64,000 nucleotides of DNA from Roseibacillus sp. Lineage in GTDB: Bacteria; Verrucomicrobiota; Verrucomicrobiia; Verrucomicrobiales; Akkermansiaceae. Both the position numbers and the translations under genes were made by a program. Under the pieces are notes generated by a model that searched no databases, was not told the origin of the DNA, and worked only from the letters and a program-made list of their open reading frames with translations. Within the stretch, counting starts at the first letter, position 1, and each line of letters begins with the position of its first letter. Location of the stretch: positions 160,001 to 224,000 of the forward strand of contig CBDEUM010000029.1 of NCBI GenBank assembly GCA_965242925.1, in the 5' to 3' direction. This document shows, piece after piece, positions 676 to 54,875 of this stretch.

Positions 676-1245
676 TCAGAGGGTGTTCTTGAGTTGCTTG
701 AATTCCTTTCGCAGAGAAATGAGCTCGGTCTCGTGCTTGGTGATTTGCCCGTCAAGGTGCGCAAGGCGCTTCAGCGTCTTCGCGGTGTTCGACGCGGCAT
801 TCGATTTTGCGGGGCGACCTGGGGGGCGACCTGGGGGGCGACCTGGGGGGCGACCTGGGGGGCGACCTGGGGGGCGACCTGGGGGGCGACCTGGGCGCTT
901 GGAAGGAGCGCCTGGCTCAACGGCCTGCAGCCATTTGTTGATGGTGAGAGCCGACACCCCGAATTTCCTTACAGCGGCAGCAACGCCACCCCGGCCCCGG
1001 GCCCCATTCACACCTTTTACATGACCAAGAATCTTATTCCGCTCGGTCTGGCTGTAGCGCTTGCCTGTTGACTTGCGCTTGGCCGTTGACTTGGCCTTGC
1101 CTGTTGACTTGGCCTTGGGTGTTGACTTGGCCTTGGGTGTTGGCTTGGCCTTGGGTGTTGGCTTGGCCTTGGGTGTTGGCTTGGCCTTGGGTGTTGGCTT
1201 GGCCTTGGGTGTTGGCTTGGCCTTGGGTGTTGGCTTCTTGCTCAT
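676..1245 (-). CDS. Basic histone-H1-like / HTH / AT-hook-like DNA-binding protein with C-terminal coiled coil
   Basis: 189 aa: (PTPKAK)6 plus four degenerate copies; [12 protein letters not shown]...[18 protein letters not shown] (HTH-like); KRP(GRPP)6GRPA; heptad tail [32 protein letters not shown]. Confidence 0.75.
811..897. repeat. 12-bp tandem repeat GGGGGGCGACCT (six perfect copies at 821-892 plus partial flanks), encoding GRPP on the minus strand
   Basis: Directly visible head-to-tail repeat with no spacers. Confidence 0.97.
1057..1233. repeat. 18-bp tandem repeat CTTGGCCTTGGGTGTTGG (six perfect copies at 1126-1233, four degenerate copies at 1057-1125), encoding PTPKAK
   Basis: Directly visible, with polar degeneration PTPKAK>STPKAK>STGKAK>STAKRK>STGKR. 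Confidence 0.97.
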
Positions 1246-1261
1246 AATGGGTTCGTGAACT

Positions 1262-1289
1262 TTGATAGGATGGTTGGGGTATTCTGCAA
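1262..1289 (-). promoter_or_regulatory. Possible sigma70-type promoter of the histone-like gene (TTGCAG-16 nt-TATCAA) within an AT-rich patch
   Basis: Weak consensus match about 16 nt upstream of the ATG at 1245, with locally AT-rich flanks. Confidence 0.3.
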
Positions 1290-1369
1290 GTTATTTGTAT
1301 GGAGGTTATCAGAGAATTCCGATGAACAAATAGAAAATCAGTCCAGCTGGAGTGGGGATGCGGGGGAAA

Positions 1370-1440
1370 TCAAACTCCAGGGCCCTGGTGGTGGAAGGTG
1401 AAGTCCTCGTGGTGCAATCCGAGGCAGGACAGCAATCGAA
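1370..1440 (-). pseudogene. Possible decayed remnant of a DUF1501 C-terminus
   Basis: Translates LLSCLGLHHEDFTFHHQG, compared with [18 protein letters not shown] in the intact DUF1501 at 37194..38615. No start codon or remainder of the gene is present. Confidence 0.45.
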
Positions 1441-1541
1441 GCGCCGCTGACCATGCAAGCTGCCGGGGTTCCGGATCGTCATGAGAGTTGTCCGCTGCAA
1501 GCGGAATGTCCGTGATAGAGTTGGAACCCTGCATCTCAGTT

Positions 1542-3008: not shown

Positions 3009-4145
3009 TCAGGGCAGAGCGGTGTTCGGTTTGACTGCGTTGGCCGGATATTGGCCGTTGAAGACCATCATCTGGTCCTGCGTTTCGGCCACCACGAAGG
3101 ATTCGTCAATTTTGCCGTCCTTGCCGGTCACACGCGTCAGATCGAGTTGGAGGTGCTCGGCAAGGAATGGGTAGGCAGCCGTGCGCTTGGAGAGTCCGTA
3201 GTCGTGTTTCTCGTCGGGGAAATGGGCATTGGCAACCTTGTCCCGGGCGCCATGGAGCTTGTAGATGTGCTGGACGAAAGGGAACTCGACGGCGGGGGTG
3301 TTGAGGGTCCAGTCACTGCCGTTGGATATGAGGAGTTGCGGACGCGGGGCGGCCAGGGCGGCGATCTCAACATTGTTGGTCTTGTGCGTCTTGCTCCAGT
3401 GAATGGGCATTCCGCTCTCACAGTTGCAGCCACCAAAGAAGTGAGCGGAAACCTGGCAGACCGGAATGGTCACCGCCACCCGCTCGTCGAGGGCGGAGAG
3501 AATGAAGGTCTGGGTGCCCCCTCCGGAACATCCTGTCATTCCGATGCGCCCAGGGTCGACGTTGGGGAGAGTGAGAAGGAAGTCGAGAGCGCGCATGCTG
3601 TTCCAGGTCTGCAGGCGCAGGATCTCGGGAGTGCGTCCGTGGTCCCAGCCAACTTCCTTGGAATCGCCATAGCCCATCATGTCATACTGGAAGACGGCGG
3701 CGCCCATCCTGGCGAGGACTGCGCAGCGGATCTGGCGTGATTCACGAAAGCGACCCCCGTGACCGTGTGGACAGAGAATCCCGGCCAGCTTCCCCTTGAA
3801 ATCGGTCGGACGATAAAGCGTGCCGGTGACGTAGAAACCGGGGGAGCTTTCAATGGCGACGTTCTCGGCCTGGTAGCCCTTGTGGACACGCTTCTTGTTG
3901 AAGCGCGGGTTGAGGGGGGTGCGTTCCGGGAGGGTGGTGAGCTTGGCGCCGGCCAGGATTCCAGCTTTCACGGTGGCCTTGCGCTTCTCCCAGCTGGCGA
4001 GGTCGGGGGTGGCCGCCTTGAGTCCGGCCAGTTCCTTCCTGGCCGCCTCCTGGCCATGGGCGTGGCCCTTGCGGAGCCCCTGCGCGGATAGTGGGAAGGA
4101 GACGGATGTTCCAATGGCGAAAACGAGGAGCGGCAAGGTTTTCAT
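3009..4145 (-). CDS. Secreted alpha/beta-hydrolase (acetylxylan-esterase-like)
   Basis: Signal peptide from M at 4145; LCPHGH, GCSGGG nucleophile elbow, CNCE, and C-terminal HDY. Confidence 0.85.
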
Positions 4146-4246
4146 CCCACCAGAATTGAGCTCATCCCCCTGTAACTCAAGCACGGAGATGAACACTTGC
4201 CGTCATGCGCTTGACCGTTCGGGGAACAGGAACTAGCAACCCTTGC

Positions 4247-4948
4247 GTGAAAGTATGCGCCTTTGGCCTCACGGAGATCCCGCTGGGCCAACACAACATC
4301 AAGGATCCGCGCCTCGACGAAACGCACAAGCTGGTCGAAGCCAAGAAGAAGGCCTATGCCCAGGTGGAAGTCGTGGGTGACGAAGGGTTGGTTGACTCTG
4401 ATTGTGTGGTGACCACTGAAGATGGTTTCCTGGAACTGACTTTCCGTGACGTGGATTTCATCGAGACCCGGCTGGGACGTGATCCCTCGGCTGAGGAGCG
4501 GGAGGCCTTGCTCAAGCTGAAGGGTGCCCTCGAGAGTGAAAAAACCGTTTTCGAGGCAAACCTCGGCGAGGCCGAGCGGGAGGCCCTGGAAATCCATGGG
4601 TTCAGCAGCAACAAACCGATCGTGGTTGCCACTCCCGGGGAACTGGGGGAACCGGATGCACTCATGGTCCGGGTCTTCAGGGAAAGCGGATGGATTTGTT
4701 TCCTGACGGTGGGAGGCTCGGAAAACCGGGCTTGGCCCATTCCGGGAGGGACAACGGCCTGGGAGGCCGGGGGTACGATTCATACCGATATCCAGAAGGG
4801 GTTCATCCGGGCTGAAATCATCAGCTACGACGACTTCATCGAAGCCGGGGGGGAGACGCTGGCCAAGCGTGCGGATAAGCAACGCCTCGAAATGAAGGAC
4901 TACCTGATGCAGGACTACGATTTGACGAGCTTTCGTTTTAATAAATAA
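4247..4948 (+). CDS. YchF-derived DUF933/TGS protein lacking the P-loop
   Basis: GTG start. Retains DPRL and FLTVGGSENRAW...AGGTIHTDIQKGFIRAEIISYDD...RLEMKDYLMQDYD.TSFRFN. No GxxxxGKS/T motif; 233 aa. Confidence 0.85.
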   Translation: MKVCAFGLTEIPLGQHNIKDPRLDETHKLVEAKKKAYAQVEVVGDEGLVDSDCVVTTEDGFLELTFRDVDFIETRLGRDPSAEEREALLKLKGALESEKTVFEANLGEAEREALEIHGFSSNKPIVVATPGELGEPDALMVRVFRESGWICFLTVGGSENRAWPIPGGTTAWEAGGTIHTDIQKGFIRAEIISYDDFIEAGGETLAKRADKQRLEMKDYLMQDYDLTSFRFNK

Positions 4949-5101
4949 GAATCCTCTTCCCGGCCGGAGGAAGTGAAGTGGGAGATCGAACCGGGGTTTG
5001 CGAAGATTGAGGATTCCGACGTTGATGGATCCTAAAGGGCCTTGATTGCCGGGGAGAGGCATGCAGCATCCATCTGTCCGGGGTGACGCTGGACTGGGAC
5101 C

Positions 5102-8100
5102 ATGGGACTTTCGCTTTCAGCTCCGATTCGATTTCTCCCATTTTTCCTCATGGGAGGCATTGTCGGGTTGGGAATGGCCCGGGGGGAATCGGAAGAACGG
5201 GAACCGCACCTGCGACAGCTTGAGTCCCAGTTTCGTGAGACGGTCCAGCCGTTCCTGAAGAGCTACTGCTACCGCTGTCACGGTTCCAGGAAGATGAAAT
5301 CAGGGGTGCGGGTTGATCAACTCGACCTGAGCCTTGAGGACAAGCAGCTCTTCCTCCTGCAGCACATCCACAAGCAACTGAAGGACGAGGTCATGCCCCC
5401 GGAGGACGAGCGCCAGCCGGGGGCGGAGGAGCGCCAGCTGGTGTTGGAGTGGGTCAGGCAGGCCTTGGAGGAAGGGGCTCGTAAGGTCAGTCCCAAGGAT
5501 GGCTCGGTGCGCCGACTTACCGTGGCCCAGTATCACAATACCTTGCGTGACCTGCTGGGAGTGGAAGATCATCTGGCGGATGCACTGCCTGCTGATGGTG
5601 TTTCCAAGGAAGGGTTCAAGAATAACAAGGACACCCTTCTCCTGACGCCCCAGATGATCGAGACCTACTTCGATATCGCGGAAAAGGCGCTCGACCTGTG
5701 CTTGGTCGATGAGACGAAGAAGCCTCGGATCCAGTGCTTCCGTGTTGAGCTCGGGAAGGGGGTCAACAAGAAGCCGACTGCCGACAAGCTGGTATTGAAT
5801 GGGCCCAACCTGCTGCCCAAGGCAGATTTTCTCGTGCGCCAGGTGGTCCCGGATAAGCCCTTCCCCTTTGAGCCCTTCGCCATGCGCACAAAGTTCCGCT
5901 TCTTCGAGGGCTATGCGGGAAACGGCACTGTGCGTGCCTGGAGGAATTTTGAGGGGATTTATCACAACGTCTTCGCCGCTCTGAACGGCAAGTTTACCGG
6001 CGGCCTGAACTACGGCCGCTCCTACGTGTTTATTCCCGAGGGCCTCCTCCTGCGGCCCAGGTCTCCTGAAACTCAGAACGGCAAGCCTCCGCAGCAGGGA
6101 CCGTCGCCCTCCTTCTCGATGCCGCTGCGCGAATTGCCCAGTTCGGGGATGTTCCAATTGACCGTAGAGGCGGCCCGGTATGACGACGGTTTCCAGCCGA
6201 ACTCGCACCTGTGGAAGGCCGGCGTTGGGTTCGAGCTTGATGTGAACGGTGGAAAAGGCGCGAGCCTTGAAATTCCGGCCGCGGGAGTCTACCAGCTCGA
6301 TGTCGTCCTGGAAGGCAACCCCCGGGATGACGTGATGACCGCGGACATCGGGCAGCGTACCTTTTCAAAGAGGCTGAAAGGAAAGTTCGCCAAGGGCTCT
6401 GAATCCGCCGGAGCTGGCGCTGGAAAAAGCCCCCTTGGAATCGTTATCGATGACCCCGCCGCCGACAAGGTCGGCGACTGGACAGATTCTGTCCACGGTA
6501 AGCCTTACCTCGGCAAGGGCTACATCCATGACGGCAACACGTCAAAAGGCGCCAAGTTCGTCACCTTCAACGTGAAGCTCCCCAGGACAGGGAACTACCA
6601 GGTCAACCTGGCCTACACCTACGGCAACAACCGTAGCCCGGCGGTACCGGTCGAAATTCACCACGCCGACGGAGTGGAATCGGCCAAGGTCAACCAGATG
6701 AAGCAACCACCGATCGGCGGGCTCTTCACCCCCCTTGGAACTTTCCGCTTCGAAAAGGAAAAACCGGCTATCGTGGTCATCTCCAACAAGGACACCCGGG
6801 GGGTTGTCGTCGTCGACGGCCTGCAGGTTATCGAGGAGGAAGCCGGGAAGAAACCTGCAGCGAAAAAAGACGGCAAGGAACAGAAATCTAAAAACACCGC
6901 GCGGCTGAAGAAGGGTGAGGTGATCATTCCCTTCCTCGTGGCTCGTTTTGCCAAGGGCGCATCTCCAATCAAGATCGGTAATGGAGATGGAAAGAACCTG
7001 CGACGGGTTCATGTGACCCCGGTCAGCTCTGAGAGCGAGTCGGGACGGCAGTTTGCGGCCTTCGAGAAGCGCGCTCCAACGGTGAGCGCGCATATCGGGG
7101 TCAGGACGGACGTAGGACCCAGGTCTACCCGGGTGGATCAGCTTCTGGCTGTACCCTCAGCCACGGTCGAGCGCTACAGCTTCCGCGCCCCGATCAGCAG
7201 TTTCCCCTCTCCGGAGACCGAGGAAGGCAACGCCAACTACCTCGCCGGCTTGTGGGAGATCGCCATCCGGAGTGAGCCCTCAGGCGACCGCCAGGTGCCG
7301 CGACTGCTCCTGGGCGCGGTAGAATTTGAGGGTCCCTTCTACGAGACCTGGCCACCCCGGGGACATCGAGACATTTTTTTTGCTTCAGAGCGCCGCAAAG
7401 ATCCGCCGGCCTATGCCCGGGAGGTGCTCGAGCGCTTCGGAGCGCGGGCTTTTCGCCGCCCGGTGACCCCGAAGGAGCTGGAGTCCCTGGTGGGGGTGTG
7501 GCAGAAGAGCTATGCCCGGAAACAGGACTTCCAGGAGAGCGTTCGGGATGCGCTGCTGGTGATTCTTACCTCGCCCCAGTTTCTCTTCCTGGTTGAAGAG
7601 AGCGCCGGCCCGCAGGCGGAGCCTCTCTCGCCTTATGAGCTGGCGGCGAAGCTCTCCTATTTCCTGTGGAACACTGCGCCGGATGCGAGGCTCATCGAGC
7701 TGGCGGGGGCTGGGAAGTTGGGGGCAGCTGTGCCAGCGGAGATCGACCGGCTGGTGGCGCATGAGCGCTTTCTCCAATTTACCGGAGAGTTTGTCTCCCA
7801 GTGGCTGAGCCTCGACAAGTTCGATGTCGTGAACATCAGTGGGGGAAAATACCCCCGCCTCAACCGCGAGACGAAGAGGGAGCTGCGGAAGGAGCCCGTT
7901 CGCTTCGTCACGCACCTCATCCGGTCTAATCTGCCCCTTCGCAACCTGATTACTTCCGACTTCATCGTGGCGAACGATGTGGTCGCGGGCTACTACGGCC
8001 TTGGCGGAAAGGCAGAGAATGGATACGCTTTTACTCCAGTGCGTCATGGGGGGGAGACGCTGGGAGGAGTTCTTACGCAGGCGGCCATTCTTTCCGGACT

Positions 8101-8620
8101 TTCGGATGGCAGTGAGTCCAACCCGATCAAGCGAGGGGCCTGGCTGGCGCGAAGGATCATCGGGGAGCCTCCCGCCCCGCCTCCTCCCAATGTTCCGGAA
8201 CTTCCTGGCGGGCAGGAGGCAGAGGGCAAGACCCTGCGAGAGCGTCTGGAGCAGCATCGTGACAAGGTGGGATGTGCGGAGTGTCACCGCAAGATCGACC
8301 CCTGGGGCCTGCCCCTTGAGCAATTTGACGCCGGGGGGCTCTTGAAAAAAGGCAAGGTTGATGCCCGCTCCACCCTTCCCGATGAAACGGAGATTTCCGG
8401 CACGAGTGATCTCAAGCGTTACCTGACGGAAGAGCGTCTTGACCAGGTGGCGCGGTCCTTTCTGGAGCACCTCTGTATCTATGCGGTTGGGCGCGATCTC
8501 ACCTTCAATGAACGGGAATATCTGCGGGTGGAAGGTCGTCGGCAGTTGTCAGGAAAGGGCTACCGGATGCGGGATTGTTTTCTTTTCGTAGTCCAAAGTC
8601 CCCTTTTCCTTGAGAAATGA
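5102..8620 (+). CDS. DUF1587/1592/1588/1585/1595-type protein with planctomycete cytochrome c domain and an internal golvesin/Xly-like module
   Basis: CYRCH, RRLTVAQYHNTLRDLLG, LSYFLWNTAPD, NPIKRGAW, CAECHRKIDPWG. Confidence 0.88.
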   Translation: MGLSLSAPIRFLPFFLMGGIVGLGMARGESEEREPHLRQLESQFRETVQPFLKSYCYRCHGSRKMKSGVRVDQLDLSLEDKQLFLLQHIHKQLKDEVMPPEDERQPGAEERQLVLEWVRQALEEGARKVSPKDGSVRRLTVAQYHNTLRDLLGVEDHLADALPADGVSKEGFKNNKDTLLLTPQMIETYFDIAEKALDLCLVDETKKPRIQCFRVELGKGVNKKPTADKLVLNGPNLLPKADFLVRQVVPDKPFPFEPFAMRTKFRFFEGYAGNGTVRAWRNFEGIYHNVFAALNGKFTGGLNYGRSYVFIPEGLLLRPRSPETQNGKPPQQGPSPSFSMPLRELPSSGMFQLTVEAARYDDGFQPNSHLWKAGVGFELDVNGGKGASLEIPAAGVYQLDVVLEGNPRDDVMTADIGQRTFSKRLKGKFAKGSESAGAGAGKSPLGIVIDDPAADKVGDWTDSVHGKPYLGKGYIHDGNTSKGAKFVTFNVKLPRTGNYQVNLAYTYGNNRSPAVPVEIHHADGVESAKVNQMKQPPIGGLFTPLGTFRFEKEKPAIVVISNKDTRGVVVVDGLQVIEEEAGKKPAAKKDGKEQKSKNTARLKKGEVIIPFLVARFAKGASPIKIGNGDGKNLRRVHVTPVSSESESGRQFAAFEKRAPTVSAHIGVRTDVGPRSTRVDQLLAVPSATVERYSFRAPISSFPSPETEEGNANYLAGLWEIAIRSEPSGDRQVPRLLLGAVEFEGPFYETWPPRGHRDIFFASERRKDPPAYAREVLERFGARAFRRPVTPKELESLVGVWQKSYARKQDFQESVRDALLVILTSPQFLFLVEESAGPQAEPLSPYELAAKLSYFLWNTAPDARLIELAGAGKLGAAVPAEIDRLVAHERFLQFTGEFVSQWLSLDKFDVVNISGGKYPRLNRETKRELRKEPVRFVTHLIRSNLPLRNLITSDFIVANDVVAGYYGLGGKAENGYAFTPVRHGGETLGGVLTQAAILSGLSDGSESNPIKRGAWLARRIIGEPPAPPPPNVPELPGGQEAEGKTLRERLEQHRDKVGCAECHRKIDPWGLPLEQFDAGGLLKKGKVDARSTLPDETEISGTSDLKRYLTEERLDQVARSFLEHLCIYAVGRDLTFNEREYLRVEGRRQLSGKGYRMRDCFLFVVQSPLFLEK

Positions 8621-8717
8621 CTCCCGGATGCGGCAGGGCTATCCGGGGTGAGGAGGCTCCCATTCCATCGTACCCTTGTGGTGAGGACATCTTCTGGTAG
8701 TGTCATTTTCAGGAAGG

Positions 8718-54560: not shown

Positions 54561-54875
54561 ATGTCCCAGAAAGCAGCAACTAAGACGGAGATCCTCAACA
54601 ATATAGCAGAAGCCACCGGCTTCAACCGCAAGCAAGTTGCCTCGGTGCTTGATGCGCTGAGTGGTGAGATCAACAAGGGAGTGAGCAGGGGCGGACCGGG
54701 ACAGTTTACTATCCCCGGGCTCTGCAAAATCGTTGTGCAGGATAAGCCAGCTACGGAGGCGGCTATCCGTCCGAATCCGTTCAAGCCGGGCGAAATGATG
54801 GAAGTTAAGGCCAAGGCGGCCCGCAGGGTCGTCAAGGTGCGCCCGCTCAAGAACCTGAAAGACATGGTCGCCTAG
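54561..54875 (+). CDS. HU/IHF family DNA-binding protein
   Basis: TKTEILNNIAEATG...FTIPGL...RPNPFKPGE...KAKAARRVVKVRPLKNLKD. Confidence 0.92.
   Translation: MSQKAATKTEILNNIAEATGFNRKQVASVLDALSGEINKGVSRGGPGQFTIPGLCKIVVQDKPATEAAIRPNPFKPGEMMEVKAKAARRVVKVRPLKNLKDMVA

Follow-up and report, generated by a model that had tools for sequence, protein, structure and literature searches.

The window analysed here comprises 64,000 nucleotides of a Roseibacillus sp. genome (GenBank assembly GCA_965242925.1, contig CBDEUM010000029.1, positions 160,001 to 224,000 of the forward strand), and close to its first letter it carries a minus-strand gene for a protein of 189 residues, designated P0001. The open reading frame (ORF) is intact, with 189 codons from the ATG at 1245, and is a real gene for a very basic small protein. 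P0001 contains 33 lysines and 16 arginines against one aspartate and five glutamates, with a net charge of +43 and an isoelectric point (pI) of 12.0. The gene is single-copy, without a paralogue in the host genome, and its product has no Pfam or NCBIfam match above cut-off. The features of the locus are listed below, with positions given in the window and the basis of each assignment in brackets.

676-1245, minus strand: whole coding sequence of P0001, 189 residues plus stop (ORF call and homologues in relatives).
1060-1245, minus strand: residues 1-62, disordered Lys/Pro/Thr/Ala tail of about ten hexapeptides with 21 lysines, one arginine and no acidic residue, net charge +22 (translation, AlphaFold2, composition).
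1066-1236, no strand assigned: 18-nucleotide tandem repeat encoding the tail, 9.5 copies, 94% matches, score 272 (Tandem Repeats Finder, TRF).
916-1059, minus strand: residues 63-110, three-helix helix-turn-helix (HTH) with helices at 66-83, 87-95 and 99-109 (AlphaFold2 and alignment).
802-915, minus strand: residues 111-148, disordered basic linker with KRP(GRPP)6GRP, net charge +10 (translation, AlphaFold2, composition).
811-895, no strand assigned: 12-nucleotide tandem repeat encoding the PGRP array, 7.1 copies, 100% matches, score 170 (TRF).
679-801, minus strand: residues 149-189, a single long amphipathic helix, predicted to form an antiparallel homodimer (AlphaFold2 and pair prediction).
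1246-1541, minus strand: upstream intergenic region, presumed to hold the promoter (GC profile and promoter scan).

The tail reads MSKK, six PTPKAK units, STPKAK, STGKAK, STAKRK and STGKRY. The open frame spans 204 residues, of which the 15 codons upstream of the ATG include no start codon, and inside the tail there is no ATG, GTG or TTG; therefore, every translated HTH necessarily carries the tail. In the AlphaFold2 model of P0001, the three helices of the HTH have block values of the predicted local distance difference test (pLDDT) of 85-94, and a single helix at residues 149-188 reaches 89-96, whereas residues 1-62 and 110-148 are of low confidence and are taken as disordered. A compact relative modelled with 37 sequences has the same three-helix HTH and long terminal helix, with a mean pLDDT of 86.6. 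A preliminary description of the locus, made from the sequence alone, had proposed exactly these four modules (tail, compact HTH-like core, hook array and C-terminal heptad helix). All four are present, and the borders set by AlphaFold2 agree with those proposed. The hook region contains seven GRP triplets, all as PGRP, and no RGRP, which bears out the remark that most copies lack the preceding arginine of RGRP.

Upstream of the gene, the GC content drops to 40% at 1251-1350, with surroundings of about 60%. A scan for promoters and terminators found no consensus promoter there; its single promoter-like site lies downstream of the gene, and its single terminator-like site lies inside the coding sequence on the other strand. 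The opposite-strand ORFs (607-1071, 683-1024 and others) were dismissed as shadows of the repeats, because relatives conserve only the minus-strand frame.

The folded core of P0001 is, in the models, a three-helix HTH of the transposase and Brinker type followed by the C-terminal helix. The best structural match in VIA was the IS3-type protein TnpE (2rn7; Z 6.4, 61 residues aligned, root-mean-square deviation 3.4), followed by a next entry at Z 5.3; Brinker (2glo) and the GcrA DNA-binding domain each reached Z 5.0. The same TnpE structure tops both Foldseek lists against the PDB, obtained with the models of P0001 and of the compact relative (E 0.24 and 0.31, respectively). Among 37 compact members of the family compared with Pfam at E<=0.01, 15 match HTH_Tnp_1 (best E 5.1e-6), nine BrkDBD and seven HTH_28; 26 of the 37 match approximately positions 10-83 of the NCBIfam model transpos_IS3, with a best E of 4e-6 and scores far below the 160-bit cut-off of this model. 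P0001 itself has no match to HTH_Tnp_1 (PF01527) at E<=10, nor at E<=0.01 in the whole-genome scan, and scores 12.2 bits (E 0.19) against the Brinker DNA-binding domain PF09607, under its cut-off of 23.4 bits. This cut-off is passed by relatives at L038:5947-6558 (29.7 bits) and L048:6039-6413 (23.8 bits). A paralogue in genome G026, which holds four family matches in total, passes HTH_Tnp_1 with 24.9 bits against a cut-off of 24.1 (L052:4813-5337). This paralogue keeps the HTH of the family, lacks the terminal coiled coil and has a different C-terminal part of about 80 residues. A search of PDB sequences with the family profile gave nothing below E 0.035, and its matches are generic coiled coils. 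The signals are weak but agree with one another, and they point to the HTH and helix as a remote relative of the OrfA protein of IS3-family insertion sequences (IS). The compact HTH-like core of the preliminary description thus belongs, by fold and profile matches, to a DNA-binding class.

The C-terminal helix is predicted to self-associate as an antiparallel homodimer. Two copies of residues 145-189, modelled with a 40-row alignment, reached a pair score of 0.65, compared with 0.00 for the best of three controls. Among proteins of solved structure, 20 of 30 pairs of one chain and one of 23 single chains attain this mark, a calibration that is only rough here, as a custom alignment was used. 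The contacts of three pair runs agree completely (100%), and the partner chain has a pLDDT of at least 87. The best-defined contacts, 178-168, 182-164, 185-161, 188-157 and 171-171, share a sum of positions close to 346; therefore, the pair is antiparallel, with its centre near residue 173. The oligomerising helix anticipated from its heptads was thus returned by the oligomer prediction as a homodimer.

From the class of the HTH and the predicted pair, P0001 very probably is a DNA-binding and dimeric protein. We give an even chance to the more specific reading that it acts as an architectural, nucleoid-associated protein or a global regulator.

The two repeat arrays of P0001 exist in several assemblies and appear to vary in length. 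P0002-P0004, from three independent assemblies, are 94-98% identical to P0001 in aligned columns and carry one to three hexapeptides and three to six GRP(P/A) units. Among the listed public contigs from four marine runs, none crosses either array, and breaks occur at about 807-866 and 1099-1207. In the record of a sister species, 'Akkermansiaceae bacterium UBA7890' (L010/L029), both arrays are runs of N. Because of these breaks and runs, the exact copy numbers in the window come from one assembly. In the same sister-species record, the reading frame of the orthologue seems to be split into two ORFs.

Another species of the same genus (G014) encodes a 110-residue member convergent with the same Gfo/Idh/MocA oxidoreductase gene that follows the P0001 gene, and this member is a positional orthologue. 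It shares 55 identities with P0001 over 131 columns, the PGRP array falls in one clean gap of 29 residues, and the tail is missing. Both arrays are absent from this orthologue, and the 12-nucleotide units are 100% identical; on this evidence, the two long arrays expanded recently by slippage in the lineage that leads to the window. A KRPGRP seed is the probable origin of the hook array. Arrays of at least three P[GS]R[PK] motifs occur, among the family sequences examined, only in P0001 and P0002. One contig from an RNA library differs from the window by three synonymous GGT-to-GGC changes (865, 877 and 889), which give a weak hint of purifying selection.

P0001 belongs to a large family. A profile of the five closest sequences retrieved 506 clusters at E<=0.001, and 232 at E<=1e-10, from 1.84 billion representative proteins. 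In the ESM Atlas, the core is nearest to unnamed clusters, or clusters automatically named 'Brinker domain', mainly from Verrucomicrobiota. The family signature reads GKRY(S/T)..EK..IL.FV...N...GRGG..AA.KKFGVS.LTI..WLK, then a variable linker, then L..L..L...I...E.EL..L...F..LK..L; residues G84, R85, G86, G87, A91 and W105 are invariant in 40 aligned sequences. Architectures were counted over 153 sequences and compositions over 152. One HTH followed by the C-terminal helix is found in 113 sequences, two HTH with the helix in 21 and three HTH with the helix in one; no helix was detected in ten further sequences with two HTH and in seven with one HTH, and one sequence has the helix only. In 32 of the 153, two or three tandem HTH are thus joined by Lys/Ala/Pro linkers.

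Basic low-complexity segments recur throughout the family. A pI of at least 10 was calculated for 132 of the 152 sequences. The interdomain linkers, evaluated in the 145 sequences with at least ten linker residues, have median fractions of 0.22 for K+R, 0.03 for D+E and 0.43 for A+K+P. An N-terminal extension of at least 30 residues is present in 37 of the 152, and 19 of these 37 extensions have a K+R fraction of at least 0.25. Outside the HTH, the motif GR[PK] was found in 46, [KR]GR[PK] in 19 and RGRP in nine of the 152 sequences, and many linkers hold a single hook-like motif such as KRGRP, RRGRP or KRGRKPG. Because of this recurrence across the whole family, the basic Lys/Ala/Pro segments and GRP-type hooks are read from the sequences as a selected trait of the family and not as chance in one protein. 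The segments vary in sequence and place, for example KPTPKA in P0001, AAKKVVKK-type linkers in P0042 and PKAKAAK in the linker between HTH and helix at L015, which argues for repeated independent growth. A FastTree phylogeny of 113 concatenated HTH and helix cores, which is unreliable owing to the short alignment, places a basic N-terminal tail in 22 members with at least 17 changes, a GR[PK] linker in 37 with at least 21 changes and a long K/A/P linker in 13 with at least eight changes. These counts hint at repeated gain or loss of basic segments. Three other proteins, P0014, P0017 and P0006, combine an unrelated HTH (HTH_17/MerR-like, in one or two copies) with GRGG, RGRP or K/A/P-rich linkers, a GRPPGRPP array and a C-terminal coiled coil; they appear to be a convergent version of this architecture that arose in a different lineage.

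The preliminary description knew of no characterised protein with this architecture and proposed a search with the core across Verrucomicrobiota, with the attached tails recorded. The search retrieved a family in which acid-poor basic tails and linkers recur. P0001 is therefore not unique, being one member of a family of about 500 clusters, and no literature on the family was found. A full-text literature search, evaluated from its listings and abstracts, returned no paper on such a protein in Verrucomicrobia and no studied nucleoid-associated protein of Verrucomicrobiota. The family is uncharacterised and lineage-specific, and consists of basic proteins that join HTH with a coiled coil.

The invariant GRGG loop also bears on whether the ligand might be RNA. 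A ribosome-associated protein or RNA chaperone that binds RNA instead of, or besides, DNA through an RGG-type loop, GRP units and a Lys-rich tail would account for the invariance of the loop and for the very basic composition. Furthermore, a GRP core with basic residues at a distance is reminiscent of the 'extended AT-hooks' that have been reported as RNA-binding. However, the folded domain is of a DNA-binding HTH class, and no ribosomal or RNA-processing genes were seen near family members at the 19 loci examined, so that RNA binding appears very unlikely.

Within the genomes sampled, its members occur in just two families of a single order of Verrucomicrobiota. When this order was sampled evenly, a match at E<=1e-4 was obtained in 123 of 301 genomes: 69 of 95 in family f1 and 53 of 81 in family f3, and none of the 124 genomes of five other families (f4, 0 of 25; f5, 0 of 94; three others, 0 of 5). 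A sample of the phylum gave 14 matches among 301 genomes, every one in f1. Both searches scored 15 candidates per genome, and weak members were possibly missed. Several genera are nearly saturated, with 16 of 16, 16 of 17, 39 of 41, 5 of 5 and 5 of 5 genomes. Most carriers in the order sample have one copy, and some have up to five; in the search of the own genus of the window, some genomes hold four to seven matches. The named carriers comprise Akkermansiaceae metagenome-assembled genomes (MAGs), four Rubritalea species and MAGs labelled Luteolibacter, Prosthecobacter, Verrucomicrobiaceae and Verrucomicrobiales. Two further carrier MAGs are oddly labelled Thermodesulfobacteriota and Fibrobacteria, and the first of these has a Rubritalea-type neighbourhood. 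A MAG labelled Akkermansia muciniphila (L041) and one labelled Prosthecobacter debontii (L043) share the same gene order around the homologue, and one or both of these labels look doubtful. The host organism of the window lives in the sea: at least part of the window is contained in 20 runs from 14 studies, most of them labelled as marine or seawater metagenomes. A relevance to the condensed nucleoids reported in bacteria of the Planctomycetes-Verrucomicrobia-Chlamydiae (PVC) group, which the preliminary description had suggested, is not indicated by a distribution over two families of one order.

The P0001 gene is a resident of the chromosome and does not belong to an IS element. Downstream it converges with a Gfo/Idh/MocA oxidoreductase gene, and a DUF5069 gene lies upstream of it. 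The neighbours of family members were scanned at 19 loci with 136 flanking ORFs, of which 95 came from 13 of the 17 loci L030-L046 (L031, L033, L034 and L039 and some distal ORFs were left out) and 41 from six further loci. Not one rve or other transposase catalytic domain was found among these 136 ORFs; a consistent placement of core homologues next to IS3-type integrase ORFs, which the preliminary description had named as evidence against its reading, was thus not seen. The only rve domain of the host genome belongs to an IS3 element (L054:1468-2615, G000:C29) about 204 kb from the P0001 gene and outside the window, which encodes a 99-residue OrfA and an overlapping 284-residue OrfB with the rve domain. 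A near-identical copy of this element is present in genome G009 (L056). The convergent oxidoreductase gene, the distance to the IS3 element, the absence of rve neighbours and the conserved neighbours at other loci place the gene outside any IS element.

The OrfA of IS911 is described as an HTH followed by a leucine zipper (PMC2909936), and P0001 resembles IS3-family OrfA proteins in having an N-terminal three-helix HTH and then a multimerising helix or zipper (predicted helices in the segments 66-109 and 149-188). It differs from them in that its single-copy gene has conserved neighbours and neither an orfB or rve partner nor a frameshift site, and in that its family has basic low-complexity arms and an invariant GRGG loop. 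This loop is a six-residue insertion relative to the genome's own IS3 OrfA in the hhalign alignment. These differences bear on the possibility that P0001 is left over from an IS3-family element or regulates one, as an orphan OrfA that would bind to the ends of the IS and modulate transposition. The remote homology of the core would suit such a role, as would the four to seven family matches in some genomes. Nevertheless, the gene downstream is convergent and is no orfB, and the only IS3 element of the genome is distant and has its own OrfA. Five genomes, four of them multicopy, have one family member no more than 2 kb from an rve domain; in each case it is on the strand opposite to an intact IS3 element with its own OrfA. 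Together with the rve-free neighbourhoods, the conserved neighbours and the near-universal single-copy presence in several genera, these observations make an orphan OrfA highly improbable. The kinship to OrfA outside an IS context suggests, on sequence grounds, an old domestication.

The neighbourhoods of other family members differ between lineages. At six of the 19 loci, in several genera, a gene for a YkuD+HAD fusion protein lies directly upstream of the family gene, co-oriented and at a distance of 70-430 bp (L036:4812-5933, L037:1712-2863, L041:4719-5933, L043:3301-4512, L044:4755-5903 and L049:2877-4814), and in five of these six a ketoacyl synthase gene stands just before it. YkuD is an L,D-transpeptidase domain and HAD a phosphatase domain; by eye, the YkuD part seems to lack a signal peptide. 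In the proteins P0039, P0052, P0059 and P0116, the YkuD or YkuD+HAD part is continuous with the HTH protein, which may be a real fusion or an artefact of gene calling. At three Rubritalea loci (L030, L032 and L035), the order is GDPD, then DAO, then the family gene.

A sequence-specific transcription factor with a local or small regulon, in which a defined operator would be the target of the HTH dimer and the basic arms would contribute nothing beyond affinity, has a limited but real likelihood. An HTH with a dimerising helix is a common layout of regulators, the recognition helix is conserved across the family, the co-oriented YkuD+HAD gene at six loci could be the target of a local regulator there, and proteins of the HU family are already present in the genome. 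On the other hand, no constant target operon is evident among neighbours that vary by lineage (YkuD+HAD, GDPD/DAO, Gfo/Idh/MocA, topoisomerase IV subunit A-like). Tandem HTH with H1-like linkers, the high pI of most members and the net charge of P0001 would also be unusual for such a regulator.

In two genomes of genus g3, the homologue lies 114-118 bp upstream of a co-oriented gene similar to subunit A of gyrase or topoisomerase IV (L047:6068-6448 with 6567-8702; L048:6039-6413 with 3780-5924), and at L047 a ParB gene follows about 4.6 kb further downstream. These homologues have 125-126 residues, and the one at L047 contains a KRGRKPG hook. The setting hints at a role in chromosome handling. 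P0001 might accordingly be pictured as an organiser of chromosome sites for segregation or decatenation, tethering a few sites in the manner of RacA or MatP, which combine an HTH or ribbon-helix-helix (RHH) domain with a coiled coil; the predicted antiparallel dimer would suit tethering. However, the topoisomerase neighbourhood is restricted to genus g3, with two loci examined, members in other genera have unrelated neighbours, and the match to RacA among PDB sequences does not rise above noise (E 0.68). We therefore consider a site organiser improbable.

Several observations weigh against an architectural or nucleoid-associated role, the reading to which we gave an even chance. The distribution is patchy for a core chromatin protein: in the own genus of the window, 9 of 19 genomes match the profile of the closest sequences, and in g3, 17 of 39 match, a patchiness to which the restricted sensitivity of the search and the incompleteness of genomes may contribute. 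The matches by fold and by profile are all weak: neither model has a Foldseek match in the PDB at E<=0.001, P0001 stays below every Pfam cut-off, and the hhalign comparison of the family profile with the genome's own IS3 OrfA reaches a probability of 38.9% over 48 columns. The genome already has three HU/IHF-family genes. One HU/IHF-family match (Bac_DNA_binding, 47.1 bits) is inside the window at 54579-54869 on the plus strand (G000:C29:214579-214869). The recognition helix is highly conserved (S98, L100, T101, I102, W105 and L106), which fits a specific DNA target as well as a structural role, and where the YkuD+HAD gene is the co-oriented neighbour the protein could be a local regulator. 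The arginine of canonical RGRP is missing from the PGRP units, and no AT_hook was reported by Pfam. Complex predictors readily give coiled coils high scores, and a generic coiled coil may pass by resemblance alone. Parts of the gene are covered by contigs from RNA libraries (three libraries from three studies), but these contigs show neither level nor transcription; two of them (X16 and X17) have no cover over 1240-1700, to which no weight is given.

If P0001 is an architectural protein, its mode of action can be proposed from the models and the sequence. The C-terminal helices would pair antiparallel into a rod about 5 nm long with an HTH head at either end, and a pair of disordered basic arms would flank each head. 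The HTH would make its contacts in the major groove, and the Arg-Pro units and the Lys-rich tail would neutralise charge from positions in the minor groove or on the backbone. With a head at each end of the antiparallel dimer, bridging is conceivable, and one dimer could hold together two DNA segments or two distant sites. Both arms, with ten KPTPKA-type and seven PGRP units, were lengthened lately by replication slippage, which probably raised the non-specific affinity for DNA. The host genome has ten matches to Hanks-type kinases, and phosphorylation of the TP sites of the tail by such kinases is conceivable.

We speculate that an HTH and zipper similar to IS3 OrfA was domesticated in the ancestor of two Verrucomicrobiales families and became a bridging protein resembling H-NS or Lsr2, perhaps a silencer of AT-rich foreign DNA, with an affinity tuned from strain to strain by the slippage-prone arrays and possibly by Ser/Thr kinases acting on the TP sites; as a whole, this scenario is doubtful. 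Pfam detected no H-NS (Histone_HNS) or Lsr2 domain in the host genome, which is 89.9% complete, and the niche may therefore be open. If true, the domestication would provide a clear bacterial case in which the DNA-binding module of a transposase was taken over for a host function, and the repeat arrays an example of fast tuning of DNA affinity. The family is a concrete candidate for a nucleoid-associated protein of Verrucomicrobiota, as it is near-universal in its lineage, mostly single-copy and very basic, with H1-like or AT-hook-like arms in some members. It includes cultured species of Rubritalea, with homologues in R. marina DSM 17716, R. tangerina KCTC 12907, R. spongiae KCTC 12906 and R. 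profundi SAORIC-165, so that the idea is open to test. An essentiality data set from transposon-directed insertion site sequencing (TraDIS) exists for Verrucomicrobium spinosum, and the main text of that paper mentions none of the terms nucleoid, histone, helix-turn-helix and DNA-binding (PMC12283558).

Comparison with known DNA-organising proteins sets the family apart from each of them in some respect. The nucleoid protein with H1-like and HMGA-like features envisaged in the preliminary description stands in so far as basic K/A/P segments and GRP hooks occur throughout the family. It falls short in that the PGRP units are not canonical AT-hooks and no H1 globular domain is present. P0001 has no match to the linker histone H1/H5 domain (PF00538), and its folded part is a three-helix HTH closest to TnpE; the long Lys/Ala/Pro-rich basic tail resembles that of linker histones in composition only. 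From HMGA proteins and the AT-hook (PF02178), it differs in the lack of an R-G-R-P core and of a Pfam AT_hook match, though the Pfam model is very short. The T-P-K-A units of the tail resemble the S/T-P-K-K minor-groove motif of sperm histones. Chlamydial Hc2, AlgP of Pseudomonas and the tail of mycobacterial HupB share H1-like Lys/Ala/Pro repeats and a high positive charge, and in some of them the number of repeats varies between strains; however, these proteins have no folded domain or an HU domain, and the hexapeptide of P0001 (KPTPKA) is rich in Thr and Pro.

The family resembles H-NS and Lsr2 in layout: a helical domain for oligomerisation is joined through a flexible linker to a DNA-binding part that has a minor-groove element of the Arg-Gly-Arg type. 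P0001 has no Pfam match to either protein and is unrelated to them in sequence and fold; its domain order is reversed, with the oligomerisation helix at the C-terminus, and it contains an HTH. The closest functional precedent is CarD. In CarD of Myxococcus and its Anaeromyxobacter analogue, a disordered basic DNA-binding region consists of RGRP hooks or of an H1-like Lys/Ala/Pro stretch (PMC2919716, PMC4374960), and in the myxobacterial protein the HMGA-type AT-hook domain and the histone-H1-like domain are interchangeable without loss of function (PMC2919716). The P0001 family likewise uses both hook-type and H1-like basic segments. CarD differs in having an N-terminal domain that interacts with RNA polymerase and an acidic segment, has no HTH and no terminal coiled coil, and is unrelated in sequence. 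P0001 is thus likely to belong to a known kind, the bacterial basic DNA-organising proteins with low-complexity arms, in which it is set apart by a probably transposase-derived core and by its slippage-prone arrays.

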